The notes under the pieces: model-generated
Seen by the model: the letters and a program-made list of their open reading frames with translations, nothing else
Databases searched by the model: none
What the model was told of the DNA's origin: nothing
From: an uncultured Verrucomicrobiae bacterium
Lineage (GTDB): Bacteria > Verrucomicrobiota > Verrucomicrobiia > Chthoniobacterales > UBA10450
Reading direction: 5' to 3'
Assembly: GCA_963726745.1 (NCBI GenBank)
Contig: CAVSDR010000007.1
Coordinates: 77,817 to 141,816 of the forward strand
DNA: 64,000 bases
Shown here: piece by piece, positions 17,569-57,525 of the stretch
Layout: every line of letters starts with the position of its first letter
Numbering within the stretch: position 1 is the stretch's first letter
Made by a program: the position numbers and the translations under genes

Positions 17569-17641
17569 GCGAAAAGCTTGGCAGTCGTTAGGCAAAAAAT
17601 GGGCGCGGCGGCATCCGCGCGGTGGCGGAACTGGGCACGCC

Positions 17642-18736
17642 TCAGGCCACGGCGGCCACGGAGACGCGTCGCTTGCCGTTGGCTCCATCGACCGCGGGCG
17701 GAATCACGCTGTGGGTGCGCGAGAAACTCACCGGCGCGCCGTTGGCCTTGAGCGAGGCTGAGGAGGCCTCGAGGATGCGGACGAGGTCCAACCCGTCCTG
17801 GCCCCCGGTGTTGCACTCGATCCCCTGCTGGATGCAATCGACAAAGTGTTGGCACTCGATCTTCAGCGGCTCTTCCTGTTGGATGTGCGGGATGTAACTG
17901 TCGCCGTAGTGGTAGGAGTAATGAAATTCCGCAAACGTGTCGTAGTGCGGTGGACGCTCTACGCGCACGTCATAAACGCGGATCTTGCCGTGCGTTTTCA
18001 GGTCATCGTAAACGATCATGCGGCGCGTGCCGACGATAGTCATCTCGCGCACCTTGCGGGGCTCGAGCCAGCTGCTCTGGATGGTGGCAAAGCGCTTGTG
18101 CCGGAAAGTAAGCGACATATTGGTCACGTCCTCGATGTGCGGCGTAACGTGGCCATTTCCCTGGCAATTTACCGTCGTGGGAAACTCGCCGAGGATGTGC
18201 AGGATGATCGAGATGTCGTGCGGCGCGAGGTCCCAGGCGACATTGATGTCGTTCTGGAAGAGACCCAGGTTCAACCGGCGGGAATTGATATAGCGGATGT
18301 CGCCAAGGTCGCCGGCTTGCACAATTTCGCAGATTTTCCGGACGGGCGAGGAGTAGAGAAAAGTGTGCCCGACCATGAGCACCAGGCCATTGCGCTCAGC
18401 GATCTCGATCAGCTCCTGGCATTCCTCCGAGGAGGAGGCCATCGGTTTCTCGATCAAGGTGTGCTTGCCCGCGAGCAGCGAAGCTTTGGCGAGCGGGAAG
18501 TGATGCTTCACCGGCGTGGCGATGACGACCGCGTCGAGCTCCAGGCCGTTAAGAAAATGCTGGTAATCGGTCAGGCCCTCGACGTCGGGGTAAAGCGCCC
18601 GCATGTGCTTGAGGCGCGACTCGTTCACGTCGCACATGGCTTTGACCCGACAATTAGCCAGCGATTTGAAATTACGCACCAGGTTGGGACCCCAATAGCC
18701 GCAACCGATGACGCCGAGAGAAACAGGCTTATCCAT
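17642..18736 (-). CDS. Gfo/Idh/MocA sugar dehydrogenase, second copy
   Basis: GCGYWGPNLVRNF, EKP, DLAPHD, SWLEPRKVR. Confidence 0.92.
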   Translation of the reverse strand: MDKPVSLGVIGCGYWGPNLVRNFKSLANCRVKAMCDVNESRLKHMRALYPDVEGLTDYQHFLNGLELDAVVIATPVKHHFPLAKASLLAGKHTLIEKPMASSSEECQELIEIAERNGLVLMVGHTFLYSSPVRKICEIVQAGDLGDIRYINSRRLNLGLFQNDINVAWDLAPHDISIILHILGEFPTTVNCQGNGHVTPHIEDVTNMSLTFRHKRFATIQSSWLEPRKVREMTIVGTRRMIVYDDLKTHGKIRVYDVRVERPPHYDTFAEFHYSYHYGDSYIPHIQQEEPLKIECQHFVDCIQQGIECNTGGQDGLDLVRILEASSASLKANGAPVSFSRTHSVIPPAVDGANGKRRVSVAAVA

Positions 18737-18740
18737 GATG

Positions 18741-19733
18741 TTATTGGTTGGCCAACGAGCGGGTCTGTCGTTCGCGCTTCCACGAGGCCCGCCACGCTGT
18801 CGCGGCCCGGCTTTCCAGCAACTGCGAAACGATCGCCGGGACGGTCTTTGCGAGGATGGCCAGGTCGAGCGCCGGAGACATGTTCTTCCCGTAGAAAATA
18901 TCCATCGCGATCATCTCGCTGAAGGTGGTTTTATTTTTGCCGTTCACCTGCCAGTAGCCAGTTAGACCGGGCGGGGCGTTCACCCGCTCGCGCTGCCAGG
19001 GCTGGTAACGTCCGAATTCATGCACCGTGCAGGGCCGCGGCCCGACCAGGCTCATCTCGCCGAAGAGGACGTTGAAGAGTTGGGGCAACTCGTCGAGGCC
19101 GGCCGCACGGAGAAAGCGCCCGCAGCCGATCAGGCGGGGATCGCCCTGTGCATCCAGCTTGGTCATCGGGACGTCGGCCTCCATCAAGCGCTCGAGGTGG
19201 GATTCGTGCAACTGCGTCTCCACATTCACGCGCATCGTCCGGAATTTTGTGATTAAGAAGCGCCGGCCATGATAGCCGATGCGTTCCTGGCGATAGAAAA
19301 CCGGGCCCGGCGAGGAAAGTTTAATCCCGAGCATGATCGCCAGCATGACCGGCAACCAGAGAGGCCAGGTGGCAAGGATAAGGAAACAATCCAGGCATCG
19401 TTTCCAAAGAGGAATCTGCGCCGACTGCGGTTCTGCGGTAGTGGGCAGATCGGGCGCTTCCAGCGCAGTGGATGGGGGGGGCATGAAGTCGAGCGCAGAC
19501 GCGGCCTGGTTCGTCGAAGTGGGCGCTGGTCCGGGCTGCAGGTCGCCATCAGGAGCGAGCGCCTTGTCATGGGCGATCCGTTCCAAGACAGCGGAAGTGA
19601 TAATCTGGGAAAGAGAGTTTGGGCGAGGGGGCAGCGCCGCCGCAGCCGGATTGAAGGCCTGCGGGCGAGTGCCAGGGCGCGCCGAACGGCTGCTGCCATT
19701 CCGCTTTTCCGCCAAGTGTTCCCCGTTTCGCAT
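18741..19733 (-). CDS. Priming sugar transferase (polyprenyl-phosphate phosphoglycosyl transferase)
   Basis: KRCLD, KFRTM, DPR, LDELPQLFNV...MSLVGPRP, PGLTGYWQV. Start uncertain. Confidence 0.9.
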   Translation of the reverse strand: MRNGEHLAEKRNGSSRSARPGTRPQAFNPAAAALPPRPNSLSQIITSAVLERIAHDKALAPDGDLQPGPAPTSTNQAASALDFMPPPSTALEAPDLPTTAEPQSAQIPLWKRCLDCFLILATWPLWLPVMLAIMLGIKLSSPGPVFYRQERIGYHGRRFLITKFRTMRVNVETQLHESHLERLMEADVPMTKLDAQGDPRLIGCGRFLRAAGLDELPQLFNVLFGEMSLVGPRPCTVHEFGRYQPWQRERVNAPPGLTGYWQVNGKNKTTFSEMIAMDIFYGKNMSPALDLAILAKTVPAIVSQLLESRAATAWRASWKRERQTRSLANQ

Positions 19734-22746: not shown

Positions 22747-25251
22747 ATGCCTCCGCAATCCGCCGTCTCCCCCGCTCCCGCGCCGCACCTTCCCGGCCCC
22801 GTCTTCTCGCCTACGACCGGCACCTCGATCGACCCGCATGGGGAGCGCCGCGGCTTCGATTTCCGGCAGTTCTGGCATGCGCTCATGGAGAAGCTCTGGA
22901 TCCTCGCCCTCTGTGTTTTTGGCGGCTTCTTCCTCTCGTTAGGCTATCTCGCGAAAACGCCCAAGCTCTATCAGGGCCACATCGTGCTGGAGGTCGACGT
23001 CCAGGACCCGACGCCGATCCGCTCCGAGGACCCGACGATGCGCCTGCGCGCGATGTTTCTCGCCAGCCAGGAAGCGCTGCGCACGATCGAGCAAAACCTC
23101 ACCAATCGCAGCTTGCTCGCACGCGTGATTCGCTCCGAGGGCCTGGCCGAGGATGGTGGCCGCGCCTTGCTCGGGAAATCCGTAGTCAACGATCTCGGGA
23201 AGGAAAAGGATGCCGCCAAGGACAAGGCGCCCACACCCGCCCCGTTCACCGACGCCGGTTCCGGCGGGCCCACGATCGCACAGGCTACTTTTACGCCGCT
23301 TGAGGAAGCGCTCGGCGGCGCTCTCGCGCGCATGGTCAAGCCGGTGATTCGCCGCGGCACGCGCTTGATCGATGTCTACGTGACCAACAGCGACCCGCAG
23401 CTCGCGCAGCGTCTGGCCGATTCTGTGGGGCGCGAATACATCCGCTATTCGATCGAGCGGCGCGCTTTCAGCAGCCAGGACATGCTCCGCTATCTCATGG
23501 AAGAAGAGGAGCGCCTGAAGAAAAATCTCCAAAAGAGCGAAGCCGCGGTCGCGGAATACAAAGCCACCACGCCGGATGCGCTCCAACTCGGCGGCGGCGC
23601 AGCCACCACGGGCAGCCAGCAAGGCGCGGGCAGCAGCGGCAGCCGGGGCGGCATCGTCGAGGATCGGCTGCAGGAATTAAGCAGCAAGTTGGGCCAGGCG
23701 AAGGCGGAGCGGATGCGCCTCGAGCACGAGCTGCAGCAGATCGGGGAACTCGGCGACAACGTCAGCGGCCTTCTTGCCGTGCCCAGCATCGCCGCCGCGC
23801 CGGCAGTGGTCGACCGTCGCCGCGATGTCGCCCAGCTCGAGGCCGCGGTGGCCCAGCTTTCGCAGCGCTACAAGGACAAGCATCCGAAAATGATGGCAGC
23901 GCGCGCCGCGCTCGATGAAGCCAAGGATGCCCTGCGCCGCACCGCGCTCGCGCAGCCGGATGTCTTGCGGAACCTCCTCGACCAAGCCAAAGCGGCCGAG
24001 AGCAACCTGGCCAGCACCACCGGCGAGCAGGAACAGGCGGCGAAGAATCTCAACCGCGCCGCCATTGGCTATCAGGAACTCGCGCGCCAGGCCGAGACCG
24101 ATCGGGCGCTCTACGAGAGCGTCCTTCGCCAGATCAAGGAAACCAATCTGACCAAAGATGTGAAGACGAATGCGGTGAGCATGATCGAGCGCTCGCCGCT
24201 TCCGGGCGCGCCTGTAAGTCCGCAGCCGAAAAAGGCCATCCTGCTTGGCCTCCTCGGCGGTCTCGCCGCCGGCCTTGGTTTGGTCTACGGCCTCGACATT
24301 CTCGATCGCTCGATCAAAACCGTCGACCAGGCAGAGGCGATCCTTGGTTTGCCGGTGCTCGCAGCCATGCCGGAGATCAGCAAGGAAGACGCTGCCGAGG
24401 GGACGACAATCAAAGCCGCGCCGCCCGCAGCCAGTTACCGTCTGGTCGCGGAAGCGCCGGAAGGGCCGGCCGCAGAAGCGTTCCGGAATCTGCGCGCCTC
24501 GCTTTCGCTCCTGGGCCCGGAAGCCGAGCGCCGCGTCTTCCTCTTCACCAGCGCGGTCCCGAGCGAAGGGAAAAGTTTCTCCAGCGCGAACTACTCGTTA
24601 GCCCTCGCGCAGCAAGGTCATCGCGTGCTTTTGATTGATGGCGATCTCCGCCGTCCGAGCCTGCACAAGATTTTCCTGCCTACGCAGTCGACGCAGCAGC
24701 CCGAGGAAATTCCCGGCATCGTCGACTATCTCGTGGGCGCAACTGATCTCGCCTCCGCGGTCCATTCCGTGACTGCCGACCGCCTCGATCCTTCCCTGCA
24801 AAAAGGCAACCAATCGAACATCATCGCCGCCACTGCCGGCCAGCTATTCATCCTCACCGGCGGCCGGCGCGCGCCGAACCCGGCCGAACTCTTGAGCGGC
24901 CCATCGTTCGCCCGATTGGTCGCGGAAGCTTCGCAAATGTTCGACCGCGTGGTCATCGACACCGCGCCCATTCTCGCGGTTAGCGACACGCTTTTGATGA
25001 CGCCGATGGTGCAGACCGTGTGCGTGGTCGTGCGGGCAAACAAGACGCCGCGCAATGCCGTCCAGCGCGCGCTCGGGATGCTCGCGGGCGCCGGCGGCCG
25101 GCCGGCCGGGGTGATCTTGAACCGGCTCCCGCGAAATCGTGGTGCTGGCTACTATTACTACTACGCTTCCCCCGGCTACGGCAAAGGCGAGGGCGCCTAC
25201 GGGAGCACCAGTGAGCGCTCACGGCGCTCGGGCAAAACCCGCGCGAGCTAA
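22747..25251 (+). CDS. wzc: Wzc polysaccharide co-polymerase / BY-kinase
   Basis: TSAVPSEGKS Walker A, LLIDGDLRRP, VIDTAP, and C-terminal Tyr cluster GYYYYYASPGYG. Confidence 0.92.
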   Translation: MPPQSAVSPAPAPHLPGPVFSPTTGTSIDPHGERRGFDFRQFWHALMEKLWILALCVFGGFFLSLGYLAKTPKLYQGHIVLEVDVQDPTPIRSEDPTMRLRAMFLASQEALRTIEQNLTNRSLLARVIRSEGLAEDGGRALLGKSVVNDLGKEKDAAKDKAPTPAPFTDAGSGGPTIAQATFTPLEEALGGALARMVKPVIRRGTRLIDVYVTNSDPQLAQRLADSVGREYIRYSIERRAFSSQDMLRYLMEEEERLKKNLQKSEAAVAEYKATTPDALQLGGGAATTGSQQGAGSSGSRGGIVEDRLQELSSKLGQAKAERMRLEHELQQIGELGDNVSGLLAVPSIAAAPAVVDRRRDVAQLEAAVAQLSQRYKDKHPKMMAARAALDEAKDALRRTALAQPDVLRNLLDQAKAAESNLASTTGEQEQAAKNLNRAAIGYQELARQAETDRALYESVLRQIKETNLTKDVKTNAVSMIERSPLPGAPVSPQPKKAILLGLLGGLAAGLGLVYGLDILDRSIKTVDQAEAILGLPVLAAMPEISKEDAAEGTTIKAAPPAASYRLVAEAPEGPAAEAFRNLRASLSLLGPEAERRVFLFTSAVPSEGKSFSSANYSLALAQQGHRVLLIDGDLRRPSLHKIFLPTQSTQQPEEIPGIVDYLVGATDLASAVHSVTADRLDPSLQKGNQSNIIAATAGQLFILTGGRRAPNPAELLSGPSFARLVAEASQMFDRVVIDTAPILAVSDTLLMTPMVQTVCVVVRANKTPRNAVQRALGMLAGAGGRPAGVILNRLPRNRGAGYYYYYASPGYGKGEGAYGSTSERSRRSGKTRAS

Positions 25252-26231: not shown

Positions 26232-26273
26232 GTGGCTGTTTGCTTACCGCCCCGGGGGAGCGTGCGCAACTCG

Positions 26274-27521
26274 TTAGGCCGCCGCTTCCAGCTCCGCGCG
26301 GCTGATTCCGCGGAGCTCGTAGAGCCGGATGAGCGTCTCTTCGATCAAATTGTTCGGGCACGATGCACCCGCGGTAATGCCGGCAAGAATGCGGCCTTCC
26401 GGCAGCCAGCCGCGCGTCACGACTTCCGCTTTCTGGTGCAGGTCGTAATGCGTGATTTCCTCGCGCGAGTTCAACCGCGAAGCGTTGCGCACGAAATAGG
26501 TCGGCAATTTCTCCTCGCCCATTTCCGCCAGGTGCGAAGTGTTTGAGGAGTTGTAGCCGCCGACCACGAGCAGGAAATCCATCGGCGCCGTGAGCAACTC
26601 GCGGAGCGCATCCTGGCGTTCCTGCGTCGCCCCGCAAATGGTGTCGAAGAAGCGGAAATTCTGCGCCCCCAGCTCGGCTCCGTCGCGGTCCGCGATCGCC
26701 TGGCGGATGCGGCGCTGCACTTCCTCCGTTTCGCCACGCAGCATCGTCGTCTGGTTGGCTACGCCGACCGTCCGGAGATGCAGGTCGGGATCGAAACCGG
26801 GAGAGTAGGCGTCGCGAAACTTTTCCAGAAACTGCTGCTTGTCTCCGCCGTGGCGGATGTATTCGCAGACGTAATCCGTCTCCGCGAGCGTCAGGACCAC
26901 GAGGTAATGCCCCTTGCCGTCGCCGAGCGCGCGCGAGCTGGTCGCCTTCGTTTCCTCATGCTCGGCTTTCCCGTGAATGATCGAGGTGGCCGATTCGCTG
27001 GCGTATTTCCGCACCCGTTTCCAGACACTCATGACGTCGCCGCAAGTCGTGTCCACGATCTGGCAGCCGCGCTCCTTGATTTTCTGCATCGTCGCCATCT
27101 CGGTGCCAAAAGCCGGGACGATGACCACATCCTCGGGCTGGAGATCATCGATCTCGGCCTCCTTGCCCGGGCCCATCAGGTTCTTGATCCCTAACGAGCG
27201 GATCTGCTCGTTCACCTCCGGGTTATGAATGATCTCGCCGAGAATGAAGAGCCGCCGATCCTGGAAAACTTTCCGTGCGGCATAGGCCAGGTCGATCGCC
27301 CGCTCGACGCCGTAGCAAAAGCCGAATTGCTTCGCCAGCCGCACGGTGATGTCGCCCACGCTGATGATCCCACCATTGCGCCGCACCTTGTCGACGATGT
27401 CGCTGCGATAATGCGTCTCCACCTGCTCCTGCACCGCCGTCATCACTTCGGGCGTGCGCAGGTTCACCTTCTTTTGCAAGGCAGGGGCGCCGGGGACCAG
27501 GTTTGTAGTCACAGCGAGCAC
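26274..27521 (-). CDS. ispH: 4-hydroxy-3-methylbut-2-enyl diphosphate reductase
   Basis: FGFCYGVERA, IIHN, DTTC, NQTT, TICGATQERQ, SSNT, TAGASCP. Confidence 0.95.
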   Translation of the reverse strand: MLAVTTNLVPGAPALQKKVNLRTPEVMTAVQEQVETHYRSDIVDKVRRNGGIISVGDITVRLAKQFGFCYGVERAIDLAYAARKVFQDRRLFILGEIIHNPEVNEQIRSLGIKNLMGPGKEAEIDDLQPEDVVIVPAFGTEMATMQKIKERGCQIVDTTCGDVMSVWKRVRKYASESATSIIHGKAEHEETKATSSRALGDGKGHYLVVLTLAETDYVCEYIRHGGDKQQFLEKFRDAYSPGFDPDLHLRTVGVANQTTMLRGETEEVQRRIRQAIADRDGAELGAQNFRFFDTICGATQERQDALRELLTAPMDFLLVVGGYNSSNTSHLAEMGEEKLPTYFVRNASRLNSREEITHYDLHQKAEVVTRGWLPEGRILAGITAGASCPNNLIEETLIRLYELRGISRAELEAAA

Positions 27522-28242: not shown

Positions 28243-29244
28243 TCAACCGGTGACCGGTGGCGCGGCGATCACGCGCCCCGCCTCTTCTTTCTCCATCCGC
28301 CGGAGGAGTTTTTCGAAATGCGGCGAGCGATTCGCGTAGGCCGGATACGTCTGCGTGGCGCCATCCGGCCGGTAGCGCCAGTGCTTGTACATCCACAGCC
28401 AGGGTGCCGGGTTCGCGCGGATCACCGGCTCGAATTCATTCCAGCAAGCTTGCGCGATTTCCTGGTGCGTCGCCTCCGGCGGGAAGGAAAGCGCAGGCCG
28501 CAGGACCAGCCGATAGCGTCCATCCGGGAGCGGCTCGCAATACGTTGGGATGATCGGCGCGCCCGTCCGCTGGTGCAGAAAAGCATGCGCGAAAGTCACA
28601 CAGGTCTTCAGTCCAAAGCATTCGATCGGCACACTCGGCAGCTTCGCCGGCACCGTCAGGTCGACAGCCAGCGTCACGCTCCGCCCGGCCTGCAGCGCTT
28701 TATACAAACGCAGGATCGCGCCTTCGCGCCGGATCGTCTGGTGGCCGGAGAGTTCGCGCAGTTGATTAAAGGTCCGGTTCAGCAGGGGGTTCTTGAATTT
28801 CTGCGTCACCACCGTGCAGGGGAAACCGCGCAAACCGAGCGCGAGCGCGATCCACTCGAATCCTCCGTAATGCAGGCAGGCAAAGATCAACCCGCGATCC
28901 CCACGTTCCGCGCGCAATTGCTCCAGCGCAGAGAGATCAAGATACTGCTCCACATTTTCTCTCGTTAGGCGGCCGCTCCAGAAGAGGTCGCCCATGGCGC
29001 GCTCGAAGTATTGGTAGGATTGCCGCACCAGCGTCGCCCGCTCGCTCGCGCTCTTTTCCGGGAAAACCGTCGCCAGGTTAGCCAGCGCGATCGCCCGGCC
29101 CGGCCGGTGAATCTGCGGCGCGGCAAATCCGGTCACGTCCGCGATCCGCTGCCAAAAACCGCGCGGCAACGCCGGCACCAGATGCGCCAGGCCGCGCAGC
29201 CCGAGCCATTCCAACCAATGTCGCCAGCGTTTCCAGTGCACCAT
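28243..29244 (-). CDS. Lipid A lauroyl/palmitoleoyl acyltransferase family (LpxL-like), copy 1
   Basis: HYGGFE (HxxxxE), [18 protein letters not shown]. Confidence 0.82.
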   Translation of the reverse strand: MVHWKRWRHWLEWLGLRGLAHLVPALPRGFWQRIADVTGFAAPQIHRPGRAIALANLATVFPEKSASERATLVRQSYQYFERAMGDLFWSGRLTRENVEQYLDLSALEQLRAERGDRGLIFACLHYGGFEWIALALGLRGFPCTVVTQKFKNPLLNRTFNQLRELSGHQTIRREGAILRLYKALQAGRSVTLAVDLTVPAKLPSVPIECFGLKTCVTFAHAFLHQRTGAPIIPTYCEPLPDGRYRLVLRPALSFPPEATHQEIAQACWNEFEPVIRANPAPWLWMYKHWRYRPDGATQTYPAYANRSPHFEKLLRRMEKEEAGRVIAAPPVTG

Positions 29245-29252
29245 CTTGCTGC

Positions 29253-30260
29253 CTAACGAGCGGCTGGCTGCGGCAGGAGCGTCCGGTCGAGCTTGGCGTA
29301 CGCCGGCCGGGCCGCGATTTGTTCGAAGGCGTGCGACTCGCTCGCGTAAAACGGGTAGGGCCGCGCGGCCTGCATCGGCCGGTAGCGCCAGTGCTTATAC
29401 ATCCACATCCAGGGCGCAGGTTGTCGCCTAACGACCGGTTCAAAAGCATCCCAGCAAGCCTGTGCGATCTCCTGGTGCGTCGCTTTAGCCGGCAACTTCA
29501 CCGCCGGGAGCAGAACCACCCGGTAGCGCCCGTCGGCCAGCGGCTCGCTGTAGATCGGGATCAAGGGCGCGCCCGTCCGTTCCGCCAGCCAGGCATGCGC
29601 CACGGTGATGATCGTCTTCATTCCGAAGCACTCGATCACCACCGTCGGGTGGTGCGGCGGCAGGGTGGTATCAACTAAGAGCGCCGCGCGTCCGCCTTTC
29701 CGCAGGATCTTGAAGAGCTTCACCAGCGCCCCCTGGCGCGGCACGTTTTGATGCCCCGGACTTTCGCGCAGAGCGGTAAAGAAACGATCGAGCAGCGGGT
29801 TCTTAAACTCCTGCGTGGTCACCGCGCAGGGCAATCCGAGATACGCCGTCGCCGGGCTCATCCACTCGAAGTTGCTGTAGTGAAAGCCGCACAAAATGCA
29901 GCTCTGCTCCGGGCCGAGTTCCGCCCGCAGGCGCTCGACGTTCTCGAACTCGATGTAGTCGGCTAAATTTTCCGGCGTCAGCCGCGGCCCCCAAAAAAGG
30001 TCAAGCATCGCGCGCGCAAAGTGCCGGTAAGATTCGCGCGCGATCGCCGCAACCTCTTCCCCGCCGCGCTCCGGAAAGGCCGCCTGCAAATTCGCCCGCG
30101 CCACCGCCATTCCGCGTCGATCGAACCGCGCCGCCAGCCCGCCCAGGAATCCCCCCAGTCGGTAACAAGCCGCACGCGAAAGCCGCGGCACGATGAGTTG
30201 CACCGCCATCAAGGCGAGCCACTCCAGCCGATGCCGCACCCGTTTCCAAAAACGCCTCAC
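29253..30260 (-). CDS. Lipid A acyltransferase family (LpxL-like), copy 2
   Basis: [24 protein letters not shown]; tandem paralog of the previous gene. Confidence 0.82.
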
Positions 30261-30317: not shown

Positions 30318-31004
30318 ATGGCCCATGCGGTGGTTCTCGTGAGCGGCGGTTTGGATTCGGCGGTCACGCTCGCCTGCGCGCGTGCACTCGGCTTCCACAC
30401 GCACGCGCTTTCCTTTCGCTACGGCCAGCGGCATGCGGTGGAATTAGACGCTGCGCGCCGCGTGGCTGACTCGTTAGGCGCGATCGAGCAACGCGTGGCT
30501 GAGATCGACCTGCGGCTCTTCGGCGGCTCGGCTTTAACCGACGAGATCGCGGTCCCGCGCGCCCGTTCCGCCGAAGAAATGGCGGGCGGGATCCCGATCA
30601 CCTATGTGCCCGCGCGGAACACGATCTTTCTTTCCTACGCGCTCGCTTGGGCGGAGGTGCTCGGGGCCCGTGACATTTTCATCGGGGTGAATGCGGTCGA
30701 TTACAGCGGCTACCCGGATTGCCGGCCGGAGTTTCTCAAAGCCTTCGAGCACCTCGCCGCGCTCGCGACCAAGGCTGGGGTGGAAGGCGAGCGCTTCCGC
30801 GTGCACGCGCCGCTGCTCCGCCTAACGAAAGCTGAGATCGTGGAGAAAGGGACAGAATTAGGCGTCGACTTCGCGCTCACGCACAGTTGCTACGATCCCA
30901 CACCGGCAGGCGTGGCCTGTGGCTTGTGCGATTCCTGCCAGCTCCGGCTGAAGGGATTCCGCGAAGCCGGGCTCTCCGATCCAGTGCGCTACGTCGCGCG
31001 ATGA
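30318..31004 (+). CDS. queC: 7-cyano-7-deazaguanine synthase
   Basis: [29 protein letters not shown]...CGLCDSC. Confidence 0.95.
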
Positions 31005-31159
31005 AACGCCTGCGCCAGGTCTTCCCGCTGACCGTGCCGGAGCAGCGGCTGGTGCTCGCGCTGCTCCTCGCGTGGGTGCTTTATCTGTTCTTCGTCAGCG
31101 GACGAAACGAGCCACGGCCGACGCTTCAACCTTCGCCCAGCCCGGGGATGCGCCCGTAA
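31001..31159 (+). CDS. Small membrane protein
   Basis: ATGA overlap with the queC stop; [31 protein letters not shown]. Confidence 0.4.
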
Positions 31160-32016
31160 CCGACGAAATCGGGAATGCGGCCGTTGGTTGCCGCCCGGCC
31201 CGGACGCGAGACGCGGAAATCGAAGACGCTGACGCCGTAGCGCGACTCGTCGTGATAAGTGCGGCCGTCGCTCGAGCCGATCATCACCCGGCGGCCGCTC
31301 CCCTTCTCTTTCCCCAGGTAAATCATCGTGTGCGTCACCGGCGGATCACGCTCGACATCGTAAGTGCCGCTCCAGAAAAGCAGGTCGCCCGGCTTAAGTT
31401 TTTCCAGCTCGAAAGTGTCGTCTTTCCGGCTTACCACCGCTTCAAAATGGCCGGCCTTTCGCACCCAGCTGTATTGCCCACTGGCGTCGCGCGGCACTTC
31501 CTTGAGTCCGTTCTCGCGCAGCACGTAGGCGATAAAGCCCGAGCAATCCATTCCGCCATTCGCCGGATCGTCCGAGCCATATTTATAGCTCAGGTCGCGC
31601 GCGGCCAGGGCCAGCGCGGACTCGATCAGCCGCTGCACCGGCGCCGGGTAGTCCTCGAAGCCGGCGAGGTCGCTCGAGGCAATGGCGACGCCGGCAGGCT
31701 TCGCTTTCTTCTCGTTAGGCGACGCGCTGGGCGACGGACTGGGCGAGGGGCTTTCCGCCGGGGTCGGCGAGGGACTGGGCGAAGGCGACGGGCTGGGACT
31801 GGGCTTTGGACTCGGTGAAGGTGACGGCTGTTTTTTCTTCTTGGTCGAGGAGGAAGAGGAGCTGCTGCTCTTCTTCTTTTTCTTCGGCGGCGGCGTCGGC
31901 TGGAAGATCTGCTTGATCTTGCTGCCTAACGACGGCTCCGGCTGGTTCGCCGCGGAGGCCCCAAGAGCAAGCGCGCCCACGAGGAGCGCCGCCAGAATTA
32001 GCCGGCCACTTCTCAA
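31126..32016 (-). CDS. NlpC/P60 (C40) cell-wall peptidase with a Ser/Pro linker
   Basis: Signal peptide, (PS)n linker, YKYG...MDCSGF...PGDLLFW...THTMIYLG. TTG start overlaps the upstream stop. Confidence 0.88.
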   Translation of the reverse strand: MRSGRLILAALLVGALALGASAANQPEPSLGSKIKQIFQPTPPPKKKKKSSSSSSSSTKKKKQPSPSPSPKPSPSPSPSPSPSPTPAESPSPSPSPSASPNEKKAKPAGVAIASSDLAGFEDYPAPVQRLIESALALAARDLSYKYGSDDPANGGMDCSGFIAYVLRENGLKEVPRDASGQYSWVRKAGHFEAVVSRKDDTFELEKLKPGDLLFWSGTYDVERDPPVTHTMIYLGKEKGSGRRVMIGSSDGRTYHDESRYGVSVFDFRVSRPGRAATNGRIPDFVGYGRIPGLGEG

Positions 32017-43760: not shown

Positions 43761-46710
43761 AGGGCAGGTGAATCACGATGCGGGTGCCTTTGCCGGGTGT
43801 GGTCTCAACCGAGTGCGAGCCGTCGAGCAGGCGCACCCGTTCTGCGATTCCCAGCAGGCCGAAGCCGCGCTGTTCACTCTCGGAAACAGCAGCGAGATCG
43901 AACCCACGGCCGTTATCCTCGATCGTGAGATGCACCGCGTCCTCCTGCACCACCAGGCGGACGGTCGCGTCGGTCGCGCCAGCGTGTTTGATGATGTTGT
44001 TCAAGCTCTCCTGCACGATCCGGTAGACGCTGATTTCCGCTTCCGGCGGGAAGAGGCCGGCGAGTTCATCGATATCCGCCTCGATTGAGAGTCCGCCGCC
44101 CGGCGCAGCCTTGTTCAGCATCGAGCGCAAAGCTTTCGTTAGGCCGAGTCGGTCGAGCAGGTACGGCCGGAGGTTGTGCGCGATTTCGCGCACCTCGCCG
44201 ATGGCCTGCGCAGAGTGTTCCGTGATTTGCTCGATCTGGCGTTGCGCGCTTGGGAGATCGGTCGCGTTTTGCGCGGCCGCGAGGGCGCGGTTGTTGATCA
44301 TCGCGAGGGTTTGCCCGAGGCCATCGTGCAGCTCCGCGGCGACGCGGCGACGTTCAGTCTCGTGGGCCGCAATCAGCCGCCGCGAGAAATCGCGCTGCAT
44401 TGCAAAGCGCTGGCGTAATTGGCGCCCGCGCCACCAGAAGCCGAGCACCATCATCGCCCCCAGAAGCCCTGCGCCTAACGAGAGAAACCACCAGGTCTGC
44501 CAGAACGGCGGCAGCATCACGATCGGCAGACTGGTGACCGCGCTCCAGACGCCATCGCCATTATCGGCGCGCACCCGAAAGCTGTAGGAGCCGGGCGGGA
44601 GGTGCGAAAAATACGCCGTGCGCCGGGTCTCCGCGTTCGTCCATTCGCGGGTCAGGCCAGCCATTTGATACTCGAAGCGGACCTCCTGCGGACGCTGCCA
44701 GCTCAGGCCGGCGTAATGGATCTCCAGCTCTTCCTCGCCCGGGCGAAGGGTGAGCTTGCTGCCTAACGAGTGCAGCTGGTGATCGATCAGCGCGCTTTCC
44801 AGGACTACCCGCGGCGGCGCCTCGTTTTGCTTCGCCGGATCGACCACGGCCACGCCTTTGATCGTGGGAAACCAGAGTGTCCCGTCACGCATCTTCCAGC
44901 CCGCCGGCGTGGCGCCATTGCACTCGCGGCTGATCATCCCATCGGCGGAGCCGTAGCCGTAGGAATGCACCCGCGTGGCCTGGCCATCTGCGACCGCATT
45001 TAACTCCGCAAGACGGGCGCGATAAATGCCTTTGTTCCCGCTCATCCAAAGATTGCCGGCGTCATCCTCCAGGATGGAGAACGCGAGGTCGTCGTAGAGC
45101 CCTTGGTGGCTGGTAATGACGGCAAACTTTTCGTCTTTTCGCCGAACCAAACCACCGCCATGCGTGCCGATCCAGAGCGCGCCGGAGCGATCCTCGTAGA
45201 AACCCAGGATGTGATTATCCGGGAGACCATTGGCCGTCGTCCACGAGGTGAAGTTGCCGTCTGCGACACGCGTGAGCCCGTCATGAATCGTGCCGATCCA
45301 AACATTGCCGGCACGATCTTCGAAGAGGCTTTCGACATGGGCCTCGCGCAGGAGTGGCGTCGCCAGCGCAAGCTGGCCCGAGCCATCGGCGGCGCCGACA
45401 AAGAGACCGCGGACGGTGCCAACCCAAAGGCGGCCGGCTCGATCGCACAGCAACGCAATCACTGCGGGGATTTTTTGCCCGGGCCATAACGGCGTCTGCT
45501 GGCCTCCCTCCAGCCGAGCCAGCTCATGCCCTGGCATGCCGGGAGCGACAAAGAGTGTTCCGGTCGCGCTCCTGGCCAGAGTATTCGCGCGCGCGTTTGC
45601 CGCCATCTGGAAAACGCCGCCTGCGAAGCGAAACAGTGCCTTGGAACTTCCAACCCAAATCGTCCCCGTTTCGTCCTGGATAACCGGGCGGATGGAATCG
45701 CCCAGCAAGCCATCGCGGCTGGTGTAAACGCCGATGCGACCATGCCGGAGGCGGATCAAGCCATCGGCGTAGGTGCCGACCCAGAGGTCGCCTTCAGCGT
45801 CCGGATAAAGCACGCGAACGGGGGATTGCCCTAACGAGTCTTGCGTGGCGCACTCGCGAAAATCGCCGGCGGCATCTTGCTGGTAAATTTTCCCCTCGCT
45901 CGTGCCGATCCATAACCGGGCGTCCGGGCCGAAGGCGAGCGCGCTCACGCCCGCATTGAGCGGAGGCGGTTGGTCGCCACGCGAGACGAACTCTCCGCCC
46001 TCAAACCGGAGTAGGCCCTGCCCGGTCCCCGCCCATAGTCCCGTGCGATCCGCGGCCAGCGCGATCACTGCTTCCGCGCGCGCCTCTGGCAGCGGAAAGG
46101 CCGTAAAGGCCTCACCGCGAATTCGGCCTAACGAACCATCGAGGCCAAGCCAAAGATCGCCCGCGGGGTCGACCGCGAGCGCTTGCACATGGCTGGCGGA
46201 CAACCCGGCGGCGGTGTCGAAATTCGTCCAGTGTCCCTCTTTCCACCGGCTGACGCCGTGGCCGAGCGTACCCACCCAGACGGCCCCAGTCGGATCCTCC
46301 GCGAGCGCGGTCACGTAGTCATCGCCCAGCCCGTCCTGTGCAGTCACAAGGCGAAAGCGGCCGTTCTCATAACGGGTGAGCCCGCCGCCCGCGGTCCCGA
46401 TCCAGAGGGTGCCGGCGTGATCTTCCAGGAGCGAAGTGACATGGCTATTCGCCAGCTCCGGCGTGTTCGTCCGGTCGAAGATCGCGAAGCGCACCCCATC
46501 GAACCGCGCGAGGCCCTCGATCGTGCCCAGCCAGAGGTAGCCGTCGCGGGTGTGGGTCACGGCGAGCACGCTGTTCTGCGGCAGACCATCTTCGTCCTGC
46601 CAAAAGCGCACCTGGTAGCGCGGCGGAAAAGTTGCCGGCAACTTCTCGTCCGCGAACAGGGGATGCGCCGCGGCACAAAAGAGAAGCCCAAGGACGACCA
46701 GACATTTCAT
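43741..46710 (-). CDS. Sensor histidine kinase with periplasmic beta-propellers, Y_Y_Y domain and HisKA_3
   Basis: Repeated (D)xxGxLWxGT blades, LPPGSYSFRV, one TM, AELHDGLGQ, DNGRGF, GLLG. Confidence 0.92.
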   Translation of the reverse strand: MKCLVVLGLLFCAAAHPLFADEKLPATFPPRYQVRFWQDEDGLPQNSVLAVTHTRDGYLWLGTIEGLARFDGVRFAIFDRTNTPELANSHVTSLLEDHAGTLWIGTAGGGLTRYENGRFRLVTAQDGLGDDYVTALAEDPTGAVWVGTLGHGVSRWKEGHWTNFDTAAGLSASHVQALAVDPAGDLWLGLDGSLGRIRGEAFTAFPLPEARAEAVIALAADRTGLWAGTGQGLLRFEGGEFVSRGDQPPPLNAGVSALAFGPDARLWIGTSEGKIYQQDAAGDFRECATQDSLGQSPVRVLYPDAEGDLWVGTYADGLIRLRHGRIGVYTSRDGLLGDSIRPVIQDETGTIWVGSSKALFRFAGGVFQMAANARANTLARSATGTLFVAPGMPGHELARLEGGQQTPLWPGQKIPAVIALLCDRAGRLWVGTVRGLFVGAADGSGQLALATPLLREAHVESLFEDRAGNVWIGTIHDGLTRVADGNFTSWTTANGLPDNHILGFYEDRSGALWIGTHGGGLVRRKDEKFAVITSHQGLYDDLAFSILEDDAGNLWMSGNKGIYRARLAELNAVADGQATRVHSYGYGSADGMISRECNGATPAGWKMRDGTLWFPTIKGVAVVDPAKQNEAPPRVVLESALIDHQLHSLGSKLTLRPGEEELEIHYAGLSWQRPQEVRFEYQMAGLTREWTNAETRRTAYFSHLPPGSYSFRVRADNGDGVWSAVTSLPIVMLPPFWQTWWFLSLGAGLLGAMMVLGFWWRGRQLRQRFAMQRDFSRRLIAAHETERRRVAAELHDGLGQTLAMINNRALAAAQNATDLPSAQRQIEQITEHSAQAIGEVREIAHNLRPYLLDRLGLTKALRSMLNKAAPGGGLSIEADIDELAGLFPPEAEISVYRIVQESLNNIIKHAGATDATVRLVVQEDAVHLTIEDNGRGFDLAAVSESEQRGFGLLGIAERVRLLDGSHSVETTPGKGTRIVIHLPYAHNHS

Positions 46711-46758
46711 CGTGCGCAGTCCCACTAAAGATGGCCCGCGCGCTTCTGGCGATCTCCT

Positions 46759-49700
46759 TCACCGTTGGAAATGCCGGCGGATTGGCCGCCACGCCAGGAG
46801 GGCCGCGCCAATGAAAAGCATCCCCCAGGTCGCCGGTTCAGGGACAGGCGCCGCGCCGAGGTAAGTAAGGGTAATGTCGTTAGGCAAAGCGCCCCCGTCG
46901 GCATTGGCGGCGTAATTGACCGAAAAGATGCCCGCGGGACTGGCGTAGACTCCGCCCGGCGCGTTGGCAAAATTGCCGATGACCGGAGAGCTGCCGCCGT
47001 CGATCACGATCGCGAAGACCTGGTTCTGTCCCGGCGTAAAACCATTGACCAGGCTCACCATCAAATTCCCGGCGAGGGTCAACTGGCCGGACATCAAAAC
47101 TTGATCATAACCGGTGCCGCCGTTCGTCCCTCCGAGTTCGATGCTCAGGGTCGAGCCCAGGCCTAACGAGAGATCGTTCGCAATGGTCAACTGTCCGGGG
47201 CTATTTCCCGGAGCGAGCGTGCCGCCTGCTTGCACGCTGACGGGACCAGCAATGCGCCCGCCTCCGCCGAGGGTAGCGCCGTTTTGCACCGCGACTGCGC
47301 CGGAACCGGTGCCGGAAAGGGCAGGATTGTTCACCAGCAAAGTCCCGCCCTGCACTACGGTCCCGCCGGAGTAGAGGTTGCTGCCGCTAAGATTGAGCGT
47401 GCCGCCGCCGGTTTTGTTGAGCTGCGTGGCCAGGCCGTTGTCGCCATTCGCGATGCTCCCTGGAACGCTAAGGGTGCCGCCATTGGCTACCGAGATCGTG
47501 CCGGCGCCATTCGCGGTGGGCGCTTCCAGATGCAGCGATCCGCTGTAGGTGGAAGTCGCGGAATTGTCGGCGGTCACGCTGCCGCGAACGTTGACATAGC
47601 CAGTGCCAGTGGTGACCGCGCCACCATTGATCGCGAGGTTGGTGATGGACTCCGCGAAGGAGTTCAAATCGAGCAGGCCGCCGGCGTTCACCGTGATGCT
47701 CTTGTCGTCGCGGACCTGACTGGACGCTCCGTAGCGGACGATGGTGCCGCCATTCACCGTGAGATTGCCGCCCATCGCGCTGCCGAAAGCATTCTCAGGT
47801 CCTTGTCCGCGCTTGCTCAGCACCAAAGTGCCGCCGTTCACCACTGTGTCCCCGGTGTAGGTGTTCGGTGTATTGCCGGAGAAGATCAGGCTGCCGCCGC
47901 CCTGCTTGTTGAGTTGCGCCGGCAGGCCGTTGTCACCGTTGGCGATCACGCCGGAAATGTCGAAGAGTCCTCCGGCTGCCACCGAGATATTGCGCGCGGC
48001 ATTCGCCGTGGGCGCTTCGAAATGCAGGTTGCCGGCGTAGCTCGAGAAGGTCGAGTTGTTGGCGGCGATCGTTCCGCGCACATTCAGGTAACCGGCGCCG
48101 GTGATAACACTGCCGCCGTTAACCGTGAGATCCACGATGGACTCGGCAAAGCCGTTCAAGTCGAGCGTGCCCGCGTTGATGATGCTCTTATCGTCGCGCA
48201 CCTGGCTGTCGGCGCCGTAGCGAACGGTCGCGCCGCTGCTGACAAAAAGATTGCCGCCCATCGCGCTGCCGAAATTAGCCGGCGCGCCGACGTTGGTCTT
48301 CGCCAGCACGAGCGTGCCGTTGTTTACGAAGGTGTCACCGGCGTAGGTGTTGGGCGACGCGCCGCTGAATGTGAGCGTGCCAGCGCCGCTCTTGACCAGG
48401 CCGCCACTGCCGCTGATCACGCCGGCAAAGGTCTGCGCGTTCGGGTTGGCAAAGGCGAGGGTGGCGTTGTTGATGATGTTGCCGAGAACGCTGCTGTTCG
48501 CGGAGGTGCTGTTGCCGAGCTGCAAGGTCCCGCCGCTGATGGTGGTGCCGCCGGTGTAGGTGTTCGCCCCCGCGAGCGTGAGCGTGCCAGCGCCGGACTT
48601 GGTCAGACCTCCATCGCTCGCAGCATCGCCAGCGATGGTGGAATGAATCAGCGGGGCAGCGAGGCTGACGTTGAAGCCGTTCGTATCGATCTTCGCGCCG
48701 CCGTTTCGCACCTGATTTGTCCCGACGCTCACAGCGAAGTTCGCAGTCGCCTGGAGCGTGCCGCCATTGAAATTGAAGAGGCCGTTTCCAGCGCTGATCG
48801 CGTTTAATCCGGAGGTGCGGAGCAGACCGCCGTCGAGGTTATAGCTGCCTCCGGCGCCGAAGAGGATCTGGGTGGCCGTGACGGTGCCGCCGCTTTGCTG
48901 CACCAGGCCGGAAGTTGGTTACGCCTAGCCTGAAAGGTTACCGACCGCGAGGGAGGTGCTCGCGCCACTGACCGGTAAGGTCGGGTGCCACGGAAACACC
49001 TCTAGCTCGATCGAAATGGGTCAAGCCATCAACTTTGTAGGAGCCCGATGTTCACGCCATTATTCGCGAGGCTGTCGAGATCGAGCTTGTGCGCCGGCGA
49101 CGAAGGGATATCGTCCCCCCGATCGTTGTTGAAGCCGCTCTTCGCGCCCACGGCACCGGTGGAGACTGGTTCCCCGAGAAGCTGAGGGTCCGATATCGTT
49201 GTCTACTTGTGTGATCCTTCAAGATCCCGCCGGAAACGCTGAGATCGGCAGTCACCGTGCCGCCCAGGGCTGAGGAAAGAAGTGCCGGTAAGGCTGCCGT
49301 TCTGGATCGTGCCGCCGCTAGGAGCTGCGGTTCTGGCCTCCAGAGATGGATATGCCGCCCAGGTTGATCGCTCCCACGGTCTGGCTGGTGCCGCCGAGGT
49401 CGAGATCAGAGCAGAGCTGTAAATGTTCAAGGTATTGCCGGTGATTTCCCAGTGTGCCGGCGCCGGTGAGTCGCCAGGATTGTGAAGTTGAAGTTCGTGA
49501 GGTGATGGGCCCGGAAAACGCATTAGGGGCGCTTAAGGTCAGAGGCCCCGACCAAAGATAAGCCCGCCCGTGTTGGAGCTACTGAGGGGAGAGCCAAAGG
49601 TTGATGCTTTGAGTGCGAGGCTTGTGCTGAAGATAAAGATTGTCCAGCACTATTGGCGATGCGGCCCGAGGGGTCGCTCGAAGTGGCGTCGAGCTGCAGA

Positions 49701-51832: not shown

Positions 51833-52345
51833 TTGCGCCGCGTGCGCCCGCGGCGACTTTTCGCGGTGCGCTCATCTCGCTGGCTCTTTTTGCTCTCGTT
51901 AGGCTTGAGCCTTGGTTTGCCGGGCTGCCAGCGGCCGATTCCGCCTGCCGCCGACCACGACGCCATCGTGGCGGTGGTGGAGGGATTCCACGCCGCGCTG
52001 GAACAAGGCGACAGCAGCGCCGCGCTCGATTTCCTCGCGCCCGATGCCCAGGTCCTCGAGTCGGGCGGGCGCGAGACGCGCGAACAATATGCCGGCAATC
52101 ATCTCGGCGAGGACATCCGCTTTGCGCGCACGGTGCCGAGCCAGCGCGCGGGCTTGATCGTGCGGCAGGAAGGCGATGTCGCCTGGACCACGCAAACTTC
52201 GCGCACCGCCGGCAGCTATCTCGGCCGCGCGCTCGAGAGCGAAGGCGCCGAGCTCATGGTCCTGGCGAAAACGCAGGCCGGCTGGAAGATTCGCGCGATT
52301 CATTGGTCGAGCCATTCGCACGCGACCCAGGTGCCGGCGCATTGA
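51833..52345 (+). CDS. NTF2/SnoaL-like (DUF4440) lipoprotein
   Basis: Lipobox LPGC; FHAALEQGD...GWKIRAIHWSS. Confidence 0.78.
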   Translation: MRRVRPRRLFAVRSSRWLFLLSLGLSLGLPGCQRPIPPAADHDAIVAVVEGFHAALEQGDSSAALDFLAPDAQVLESGGRETREQYAGNHLGEDIRFARTVPSQRAGLIVRQEGDVAWTTQTSRTAGSYLGRALESEGAELMVLAKTQAGWKIRAIHWSSHSHATQVPAH

Positions 52346-55338: not shown

Positions 55339-55342
55339 GAAT

Positions 55343-55756
55343 CTAGTTACGCGCGCCACCGCCGTTGAGTGTCGCGTTCTTCCGAAAGATGATGCTGTCG
55401 AGGCTAAGCGGTCCGGCCCCGCGGAAAAACATGTAGAGGAAGACAAAGCAATAAAGCACCGCCATCTCGCCTTTGTTGATCACCGGGAGGAAACCCTGCG
55501 GCGCGTGCGCCATGAAATACGCCACCGCCATCAAGCCGCTCGCGAGGAACGCCGCCGGCCGGGTGAGCAGGCCGAAGGCAATCAACAACCCGCCCACGAG
55601 CTCGATCGCTCCCGCGACCAGCATCATCCCGGTTGCATGGCCTTTGCCGCCAAACATGCCGAGAAGTTTTTGCGCGCCGTGGCAGGCGAACATGAGGCCT
55701 GAGACCAGGCGCAGGAGCGCGTAGGCGTAAGGGGAGAAGCGGTCGAGTGAATTCAT
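55343..55756 (-). CDS. DoxX family membrane protein
   Basis: LLRLVSGLMFACHGAQKL...ELVGG...MAVAYFMAH...NKGE. Confidence 0.88.
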   Translation of the reverse strand: MNSLDRFSPYAYALLRLVSGLMFACHGAQKLLGMFGGKGHATGMMLVAGAIELVGGLLIAFGLLTRPAAFLASGLMAVAYFMAHAPQGFLPVINKGEMAVLYCFVFLYMFFRGAGPLSLDSIIFRKNATLNGGGARN

Positions 55757-55845
55757 CGCCAGAGGCTGCGGAGCGGCCCGCGCGCTGTCAAGATTCCGCT
55801 GCGAATCCCCGCAGCGTCGCGGCCACACCCGCGCTAAACTCCCGC

Positions 55846-57088
55846 GTGGAGAGCGAACGCATCGTCATCGTGGGCGGAGGCGCGGCCGGCTTTTTCGCCG
55901 CGATCGCCTGCGCGGAGGCGCGCCCGGCGAAACAGCGTGCGCCTGCTCGAGCGCGGCTCGCATTTTCTCACCAAGGTGCGCATCTCCGGCGGCGGCCGCT
56001 GCAATGTCACCCACTCTCCCGCGCTCGAGCGCCGGATCTTTGCCGCCCGTTACCCGCGAGGCGAACGCGCGCTGCTCTCCGCGCTCCACCGCTTTTCGCC
56101 GGAGGATTGCGTGGCCTGGTTCGAGCGCCGGGGCGTGCGGCTGAAGACGGAAGCGGACGGCCGGATGTTTCCGGTGACCGACTCTTCCGGGACGGTGATC
56201 GATTGCTTCCTGCACGAGGCCGAGGCCGCGGGGGTGAAACTCTGGCCGCGCATCGGCGTGGAGCGGGCGACGAAAACAGACAGCGCTTTCACCCTCGAGC
56301 TTTCCGATGGCGGCGCGCTCGAATGCGATCGCCTGCTGCTCGCCACCGGCGGCGCGCGCGACCCGCGCGGCGCGGAGCTGGCGCAGTCGTTAGGCCACAC
56401 GATCGAGCCCGCGGTGCCTTCGCTTTTTTCGCTGCACATTGACTGCGAATGGCTGCGCAATCTTCCCGGCGTGGCCGCGCCCGAGGTGGAACTGACGGTG
56501 CCTGGCCTGCGCCTGCGCGAGCGCGGCCCGCTCCTGATCACGCACCACGGCATCAGCGGGCCGGCCGTCCTGCGCCTTTCCGCCTGGGGCGCCCGCCTCC
56601 TCGCGGAGACCGATTATGCCTTCACGCTGCGCTGCAACTGGCTGCCCGCTCTGACCGCCGATGAAATCAGCGCCGAGTTCCAGCGCCGCCGCGAAAGCGA
56701 TGGCAAAAAACGCGTCGGCGGTTTCCCGATCGCGCCGCTGCCTGGCCGGCTCTGGGAAGCGCTCACCCGCGCCGCGCGCATCCCGGAGGAAACGATCTGG
56801 ACCGCGCTTTCGCGTGCGCAATCCCTCGCGCTGGTGGCGTTGCTCACGCGCGCTGAATTCCCGGTCGTGGGGAAGACCTTGAACAAGGATGAGTTTGTCA
56901 CCTGCGGTGGCGTGCGCCTGAGCGAGGTGGACTTCCGCACGATGGAAAGCCGGATCACGCCGCGGCTTTATTTCGCCGGCGAATTGCTCGACATCGATGG
57001 GATCACCGGCGGCTTCAATTTTCAATCGGCCTGGAGCACCGGCTGGATCGCCGGCCATGCCATGGCCGGGACGGCGCCTGCGAAATGA
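55846..57088 (+). CDS. HI0933/BaiN-family flavoprotein (frameshift ~55935)
   Basis: IVGGGAAG, KVRISGGGRCNVT, LATGG, VTCGGV, GELLDIDGITGGFNFQ. Confidence 0.9.
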
Positions 57089-57525
57089 AAGCGCCACTGC
57101 CTAACGAGCGCGCGCTCGCCGAAGTGCGCGCAGTCTATGCCGACCTCGAACGCCGCCCGGTGGAGCGAAACTGCACGCGGCTGCAAGAGTGTTGCCATTT
57201 CAAGCTCACCGGCCGCACGCCTTACCTGACCAAAGGCGAGGCGCTCCTGGCCGCGAAAGCTTTCCGCGCCACCGGCCGGAAGAGCTTGCCGGCTAATTCC
57301 GCCGGCGTCTGCCCGATGCTCGACCGCGCCACCGGGAATTGCCTCATCTACTCCGCGCGGCCGTTCGGTTGCCGCACGCATTTTTGCCCCGCAGCCGGCG
57401 GCCCTTACGCCCGCCGCGATGTGCTCGACCTCATCCGCCGCCTCGAAGCGGTCGATGCCCAACTCGGCGGCAAGGCCCGCGCATGCTGCCCGGCGCGGTC
57501 GCGGAGCGCATTGAACGAGCTCTAG
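57085..57525 (+). CDS. YkgJ-family cysteine-cluster protein
   Basis: CTRLQECC...CPML...CLIYSARPFGCRTHFC. Confidence 0.82.
   Translation: MKAPLPNERALAEVRAVYADLERRPVERNCTRLQECCHFKLTGRTPYLTKGEALLAAKAFRATGRKSLPANSAGVCPMLDRATGNCLIYSARPFGCRTHFCPAAGGPYARRDVLDLIRRLEAVDAQLGGKARACCPARSRSALNEL

Follow-up and report, generated by a model that had tools for sequence, protein, structure and literature searches.

A nonameric word shared by a family of Chthoniobacterales is kept at the DNA level and lies in helical register with neighboring A-tracts

Sequence-specific uptake of DNA has been described in two proteobacterial families only (PMC7811141, bioRxiv 2025.10.24.684340). In the Pasteurellaceae, the uptake signal sequence (USS) has an asymmetric 9-base core, recurs about once per kilobase on both strands, and lies mostly in genes; the tripeptides that it encodes are enriched, it is scarce in newly acquired DNA, and it originates by point mutation (PMC7811141, PMC2817400, PMC3458573). 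Its flanks are graded, the core being accompanied by helically phased T-tracts, and kinking has been proposed (PMC3458573). The DNA uptake sequence (DUS) of the Neisseriaceae, which is read by ComP, exists as dialects around CTG (PMC3630211). We describe here a word of comparable genomic habit, the nonamer TCGTTAGGC (M1), in a 64,000-nucleotide stretch of DNA (the window) from an uncultured Verrucomicrobiae bacterium (assembly GCA_963726745.1, contig CAVSDR010000007.1, positions 77,817 to 141,816). M1 has these features in common with USS, its phased flanks being A/T dinucleotides and its scarcity in acquired DNA being judged by proxy, and the TTAGSC that it shares with a second word, M2, recalls the DUS dialects.

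Two other systems invite comparison. HIP1 of cyanobacteria is, like M1, very abundant, strand-neutral, coding, and of unsettled function, and it has been linked with transformation as well as with order on the scale of the chromosome (PMC5861425; bioRxiv 2024.09.10.611283). The DNA gyrase motif of E. coli resembles M1 in that periodic sequence flanks a central site on either side (PMC6379681).

The window belongs to contig C7 of a Chthoniobacterales genome (G000; 3.41 Mb, seven contigs, 62–64% GC). The nonamer, the octamer, and the 7-mer TCGTTAG were counted separately. An earlier note, made from the letters of the window, had listed 26 octamers, 13 per strand, with 24 extending to the nonamer and seven one-mismatch variants; every octamer coordinate is exact, the nonamers stand where they were placed, and all seven variants were found. 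By chance, for which the note had estimated one to two octamers, 100 dinucleotide shuffles give 1.11 octamers and 0.38 nonamers and never reach the observed count. Nor is the enrichment peculiar to the window. G000 holds 1312 nonamers (631 on the plus and 681 on the minus strand) and 2025 copies of TCGTTAG, with 0.32–0.53 nonamers per kilobase on each of the seven contigs, and M1 words lead the lists of 8-, 9-, and 10-mers against an order-4 Markov model. An expectation-maximization (EM) model places about 2150 sites with an information content of 17.5 bits. In its profile TCGTTAG is near-invariant and is followed by G (0.77) and C (0.90); a 5′ extension, W-S-S-A-C, precedes it. Variants at positions 2, 8, and 9 run up to 20-fold above a codon null and those elsewhere lie at or near it; beyond the profile the flanks of different copies show no similarity. 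The earlier note had caught the word itself and overlooked the 5′ extension, M2, and the helical phasing described below.

Most copies lie in coding sequence, in different frames, as had been claimed. Genes were called with a self-trained caller, which gave 2987 genes and 85% coding density and missed frameshifted pieces. Of the 1312 nonamers, 961 are in genes, distributed over all four open frames (446, 73, 229, and 213), 157 overlap stop codons, and 194 fall outside called genes; 217 octamers (97 plus 120) overlap stop codons. A codon-aware null does not remove the enrichment: 963 nonamers in called genes compare with means of 12.95 when synonymous codons are shuffled genome-wide and 21.45 when they are shuffled within genes (20 runs each). 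A shuffle keyed to the next amino acid yields 62, a null that M1 itself inflates. The word also leaves its mark on proteins. In G000 the tripeptides SLG, PNE, and PND occur at 1.64, 2.55, and 1.49 times expectation, and the nonamer encodes 447 of 761 SLG and 212 of 381 PN[DE]; in about 29,500 residues of the relative G080, PN[DE] occurs 52 times and the reversed tripeptide four times. Tripeptides encoded by USS and DUS are reported to be enriched about twofold (PMC2817400).

The gene ispH provides a view of the word in orthologous proteins. In an alignment of 81 orthologues (the best 80 of 381 relatives were kept), one leucine is encoded by TTA in 71 of 81, a check on ortholog conservation that bears out a signal held at the DNA level; in 30 other conserved leucine columns TTA accounts for 53 of 2387 codons. 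M1 is therefore maintained as DNA. It appears at five ispH positions among these orthologues, sporadically at all but the main one, and three orthologues have SLG where most relatives show SVG or TVG. M1 is kept as DNA and originates in place within orthologous genes.

The distribution of the word follows a taxonomic boundary. The family was sampled with 150 genomes at least 85% complete, from 28 genera, drawn from a larger group. Genomes G001, G045, G148, and G008 are unpublished; the octamer range does not depend on them, and statements about G045 rest on an unpublished genome. Octamer density in the 150 genomes ranges from 7 to 1482 per megabase (median 129), exceeding 20 in 149 and 400 in 38 of them; it is 0.44 per kilobase in G000 and reaches 1.48 per kilobase, about one per 700 bases, in G080. 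Among 15 other families, sampled with 108 genomes, the octamer does not exceed about 18 per megabase. These families serve as the baseline, and a reversed-pattern control inflates the background. TCGTTAG was not found in 80 kb of one family member, G058. As 149 of the 150 further genomes from the family are enriched too, an adapter or assembly artefact is ruled out, and the proposal of a lineage-specific, genome-wide, strand-symmetric signal stands. The M1-bearing family is presumably that of Ca. Udaeobacter. Phages searched with a 14-base pattern showed 60 loci of at most three octamers each, a result that says little, since none of these phages was identified as one of the M1-bearing family. 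No account of M1, or of uptake sequences in Verrucomicrobia, was found in the titles and abstract openings of the open-access literature searched; word lists in the supplements of k-mer surveys could contain M1. The word is real, family-wide, and undescribed in that literature.

A second property of M1 lies outside the word. For about 200 bp on each side of it, A/T dinucleotides rise and fall every 11.3 bp, in a phase locked to M1. G000 has an 11.3-bp A-tract periodicity genome-wide, with a reach of about 250 bp, that is strong also in G080 and weak at 11.3 bp in G058, G066, G005, and G170. Because this general signal is strong in G000, controls matched for the W/S pattern were needed, and phase was measured at −200 to −25 and +30 to +200. 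The amplitude is 7.7 ± 0.8 in G000 (controls 1.4 ± 0.4; 2025 sites), 8.1 ± 1.5 in 500 kb of G080 (controls 2.7 ± 0.8; 847 sites), and 4.2 ± 1.4 in four pooled genomes (controls −1.3 ± 0.6; 640 sites), and the phase is 4.5–4.6 in all three independent sets; three smaller genome sets are individually not clear. The phasing peaks beside M1 and has faded by 250 bp. The signal is carried by codon positions 3 and 1. Protein helices were rejected as its source, since position 2 shows no clear signal. Among 6122 7-mers other than A-tract words in G000, M1 has the highest z, with amplitude rank 79 (331 of 2212 in G080). A periodic signal of 7.9 ± 0.6 is also present in G000 far from M1 and M2, and A-tract words reach larger amplitudes (10–15), so M1 follows the periodic signal and does not create it. 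The TTA of M1 shares a helical face with nearby A-tracts more often than its letters account for. Together these results show a protein-type recognition word that is under lasting constraint at the DNA level and has a rotational preference.

Compared with parS, Noc, or MatP-type sites, which may be confined to one chromosome region or excluded from it, M1 occurs in even numbers per 100 kb on all of the contigs of G000 that were scanned, including across a skew change in C2. M1 is less frequent in atypical DNA, GC3 and low-GC stretches serving as proxies for the recent acquisition in which USS and DUS are scarce: the fraction of SLG tripeptides encoded by M1 is 0.34 in the lowest GC3 eighth and 0.73–0.78 in the top three, and TCGTTAG is absent from a 25-kb stretch of C7 with 58% GC. 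No M1 occurs in 1.56 kb of 16S ribosomal RNA (rRNA), weak evidence by itself. A 16S rRNA gene (L173:6845-9205) is followed by two transfer RNA (tRNA) genes, and the 10.8 kb that remain carry no match to 23S, so the rRNA genes are apparently unlinked. In the window, positions 1–17500 and 57200–64000 are lower-GC polysaccharide clusters with two and zero M1 7-mers, probably acquired DNA.

Copies of M1 in G000 avoid one another. Pairs closer than 250 bp number 155, compared with 319 ± 20 expected and 269 in the lowest of 200 jittered sets, in all four orientations; five control words show no such avoidance. With another M1 inside 200 bp, 68 of 152 SLG and PN[DE] are occupied, compared with 424 of 613 otherwise (p = 5e-8). 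No helical phasing was found between paired sites. The spacing in G000 is what would be expected of an uptake sequence if a further site close by brings no gain (PMC7811141).

G000 also contains the second word, M2, described by S-A-W-N-K-Y-G-Y-Y-G-G-C-T-A-W-W-T-Y, an 18-bp, loosely palindromic pattern with about 1600 sites. An EM model fitted to M2 drifted toward codon periodicity and was discarded. The core pattern occurs 1533 times in genes, against 128–143 in shuffles (hybrids counted). The strict pattern numbers 689 in G000 and 331 in G045; G015 has 31, and none of the remaining 148 genomes exceeds 19. M2 is thus abundant in two of 151, and G045 belongs to another genus and is low in M1. 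The search turned up no determinant of M2. M1 and M2 have the core TTAGSC in common, and a full M2 arm is found on 80 of 1312 M1 sites (2.8 expected). M2 avoids itself but not M1 (cross ratio about 1.0–1.3), and its flanks are phased as well (7.9 ± 1.0). A third word, CAAGATCGACAAT (M3), occurs in G066 as 19 exact 11-mers in 100 kb (L097-L100, L172) and is nearly absent from ten other genomes sampled.

The copies in the window are as follows.

17585–17593, plus strand: M1 at the 5′ end of a gene for a sugar aminotransferase, the first nonamer past a 17.5-kb nonamer-free polysaccharide cluster
22936–22944, plus: M1 in a wzc-like gene (22747–25251)
26271–26279, plus: M1 overlapping the TAA stop of ispH (minus strand, 26274–27521)
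27190–27197, minus: M1 octamer encoding Ser-Leu-Gly in ispH; TCGTTAG is here in 69 of 78 SLG-bearing orthologues
28962–28970, plus: M1 in a lipid A acyltransferase-like gene (28243–29244)
29242–29259, plus: hybrid of an M2 left arm and M1 (M1 on the minus strand, 29251–29259), containing the TAG stop of gene 29253–30260
29426–29434, minus: M1 in a second lipid A acyltransferase-like gene
30471–30479, plus: M1 in queC
30820–30828, minus: M1 in queC, opposite in orientation to the copy at 30471
31712–31720, plus: M1 in gene 31126–31980
31915–31932, plus: M2/M1 hybrid (M1 on the minus strand, 31924–31932), in gene 31126–31980
33517–33525, minus: M1 in an amino acid transporter gene
35697–35705, plus: M1 in smc
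36307–36315, plus: M1 in smc
40298–40306, minus: M1 in an E1-alpha dehydrogenase gene
41446–41454, plus: M1 in an E1-beta dehydrogenase gene
44136–46134: five M1 in a sensor kinase gene (43741–46725), at 44136 (plus), 44473 (minus), 44761 (minus), 45830 (octamer, minus), and 46126 (minus)
46877–47169: two M1 in the gene of a beta-strand-repeat PEP-CTERM protein, at 46877 (plus) and 47161 (minus)
51896–51904, plus: M1 at the start of called gene 51890–52345
56387–56395, plus: M1 in a flavoprotein gene (55937–57088)
57099–57107, minus: M1 in gene 57085–57525, the last copy of the window
3246–37633: 13 sites of M2 (SAWNKYGYYGNCTAW, a 15-base pattern), on the plus strand at 3246, 9491, 25278, 29242, and 31915, and on the minus strand at 6919, 7195, 18654, 29078, 29485, 36087, 36583, and 37619

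The genes for smc (34896–38650), the sugar aminotransferase (16449–17688), and a pilus secretin (L089:7701-10374) are split into overlapping frames, probably by long-read indel errors.

What process could have written such a word into thousands of sites? The reading that we favor, while placing it about midway between acceptance and doubt, is that M1 is a tag resembling an uptake sequence, spread by biased uptake and recombination and read best on DNA bent in one direction. M1 itself, kept as DNA, arising in place, and with a near-invariant 7-base core between graded flanks, is the bare recognition word of a sequence-specific DNA-binding factor common to one family of soil Chthoniobacterales. 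By analogy with the drive of USS and DUS, the likeliest role of this factor is in natural transformation, so that fragments bearing M1 would be taken up or recombined more often and the word would spread wherever the protein tolerates it, stop codons included, even at the price of altered amino acids. The reader of the word would favor one rotational setting relative to the A/T bending, as if the DNA must bend or kink, and the long reach of the phase may derive from the 11.3-bp signal already present in the genome. M2 could represent another such specificity, built on the common TTAGSC core and coexisting with M1. A drive of the uptake type best accounts for altered amino acids at thousands of sites, for a density that ranges 200-fold, for the loss, and for the replacement words. 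The density of M1, its lack of strand polarity, the enriched tripeptides, the lower frequency in atypical DNA, the origin in place, the different words of relatives, and the self-avoidance in G000 also speak for it.

A number of observations weigh against this reading. M1 is only 1.4–1.9 times as dense in intergenic DNA (0.69–0.93 per kilobase) as in genes (0.50). Neither inverted pairs nor a role in terminators was found in G000, where close opposite pairs fall under expectation; GCCTAACGA followed by the inverted core occurs 17 times, against 33 in the control. About half of DUS and USS, by contrast, lie in terminators (bioRxiv 2025.10.24.684340). Five relatives show little or no self-avoidance (observed/expected 349/372, 58/62, 48/61, and 40/42), so that this is not a family trait, and the phase out to 200 bp suits an intracellular setting at least equally well.

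The search for a reader gave evidence on both sides. Genes of transformation, which favor uptake, are present: G000 carries comEC and dprA, together with three secretin hits (a type IV pilus secretin among them), PilM, ATPases of the pilus, and 16 pilin-type genes. Of the 150 family genomes 143 have comEC, but its presence is unrelated to M1 density. The search that the earlier note had suggested turned up a secretin and an orphan methyltransferase; ComP did not rise above the cut-off of the profile search. The pilins tested vary fast and track neither M1 nor M2. A comparison of pilins with density showed no tracking either, with the caveat that in some genomes the best match was to a pilin other than the orthologue. 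Between G045 (32 per megabase) and G170 (728 per megabase) a FimT-like pilin keeps 70% identity, and a tip cassette is present in word-less G058 and was not found in G013, G024, and G170; other pilins, compared in three genomes, show nothing to suggest transfer from G000 to G045 or back. Next to the conserved genes prs-rplY-pth-rpsF-ssb-dprA-topA lies a highly variable cassette of minor pilins (L168:9578-12133; L170, L171, L172), seen in four genera with differing sequences and positions. In favor of uptake, a protein in which a staphylococcal-nuclease domain is fused to a ComEA helix-hairpin-helix domain, with a hydrophobic N-terminal stretch (L332:781-1683), is found in 36 of the 38 genomes above 400 octamers per megabase and in 62 of the 112 below, counts that include weak partial hits and kin that are not independent. 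Its gene occurs also in the lowest-density genera and was not found in genera at 130–310 per megabase, and in G000 the nuclease stands alone (C4:17230-17874), the ComEA piece being apparently broken (C2:230178). This protein cannot be the reader.

The main rival, which we consider less likely, is that M1 is instead the site of an intracellular protein that shapes the chromosome or its topology, such as a nucleoid protein or a factor positioning gyrase or SMC, which would bind bent, supercoiled DNA on a fixed helical face, with selection for binding maintaining about one site per 1–2 kb. An intracellular reader accounts best for the phase and for the invariant sequence: the 11.3-bp phase locked to M1 is the same in three sets, its z is highest among the words compared, and a word invariant family-wide suits a conserved reader. 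Over 20.5 kb the ribosomal protein cluster has retained 10 sites, of which five lie at gene junctions, and the E. coli gyrase motif offers a precedent with 10.75-bp periodic flanks (PMC6379681). However, a density ranging from 7 to 1482 per megabase within one family, with loss of M1 in G058, would be odd for a core function, the lack of mutual exclusion between M1 and M2 argues against a large wrapped particle, and the periodic signal exists far from the words and is larger at A-tract words. No candidate protein emerged either: G000, G045, G013, and G058 have one ParB and G015 has two, and HU was found at most once in each of five genomes. The link between an ~11-bp period and supercoiling is itself disputed (PMC7537859), and the role of this periodicity in bacterial genomes is unsettled (PMC4132750, PMC7537859).

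Methylation or repair, which the earlier note had also entertained, fares less well. An orphan beta-class (SPPY) methyltransferase (C3:981251-982039 in G000; L084:16251-17042) is encoded in 142 of the 150 family genomes, and M1 might, like HIP1, be a methylated site made by biased repair or one that boosts recombination of incoming DNA. The A at the second-last place of TCGTTAG has the form that we take to be typical of MmeI-family and BREX sites. Methylated HIP1 increases transformation of Synechococcus (bioRxiv 2024.09.10.611283). However, word-less G058 has the orphan enzyme as well, as do 13 genomes outside the family in which M1 is at background; GTAC, which is strongly avoided in G000 (rho 0.16), may be its likelier target; and M1 is no palindrome and has graded flanks, unlike a sharp enzyme site. 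We regard this explanation as improbable. Least probable by far, in our judgment, is a directional signal such as Chi or KOPS, or the remains of integron attC or REP-like elements. The overlap of 217 octamers with stop codons would fit, as would copies clustered at spacings of 400–900 bp in two genomes of other families, and GTTAGGC within M1 presumably has the form of an attC core. Yet M1 shows no polarity with GC skew (515 on the G-rich and 489 on the C-rich strand, p = 0.43, contigs unordered), as the earlier note had foreseen in setting it apart from Chi and KOPS, and its self-avoidance is independent of orientation. No attC-like inverted partner 40–140 bp away was found, no IntI integron integrase rose above the cut-off in G000, the flanks are unshared between copies, and the copies lie in frame within orthologous genes. 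Chi/KOPS, attC, and terminator pairs were rejected on the lack of skew polarity, inverted partner, and integrase, and the orphan methyltransferase, ComP, an extra ParB, and an extra HU are unsupported as reader. The two genomes of other families, G028 (C2:640583-642996, C7:94047-96643) and G029 (C75), hold few TCGTTAGGC copies, in an arrangement like that of integron cassette arrays.

If biased uptake is the correct reading, M1 would be a third case of sequence-specific uptake, in another phylum, and uncultured soil bacteria would have to be transformed frequently. With an intracellular reader, M1 would instead give the ~11-bp periodicity of bacterial genomes a sharply defined anchor. A density that varies 200-fold over 150 genomes, together with the single loss and the two replacement words, offers natural contrasts between molecular drive and selection, and under either reading a 9-base bait renders the reader findable by pull-down.

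Set against the described systems, M1 differs from USS in its unrelated sequence, its phylum, the lack of inverted terminator pairs, its weak intergenic enrichment, and the absence of a receptor among the proteins found; its A/T phase reaches 200 bp, whereas that of USS spans two turns. As with DUS dialects, relatives of G000 carry different words (M2 in G000 and G045, M3 in G066). In contrast to DUS, M1 and M2 coexist in G000, M2 occurs in two genera without following phylogeny, ComP is not above cut-off, and the inverted pairs that all DUS dialect genomes have are lacking. The pilin receptor of DUS and USS is ComP, or the predicted PpdA/ComN, and no co-varying pilin was found for M1. Because the tests for terminator pairs and for a pilin receptor failed, M1 is not classed with USS or DUS; the likeness is one of genomic signature only. 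Unlike HIP1, M1 is non-palindromic (TCGTTAGGC differs from its reverse complement) and has no matching methyltransferase among those found, and the periodicity found for it is helical, at 11.3 bp, that of HIP1 running over tens of kilobases. The gyrase motif is degenerate, 130 bp long, and has a period of 10.75, in contrast to the sharp 7–9-base core and 11.3-bp period of M1. We tentatively suggest that M1 is a rotationally positioned chromosomal address, present about once per kilobase and locked to an 11-bp A/T periodicity, whose reader is unrelated to ComP, HIP1 methyltransferases, ParB, or HU and whose specificity may be replaced in one lineage and doubled in another (M1, M2, M3); it would then be either a third independent code for DNA uptake or a new code for chromosome positioning.

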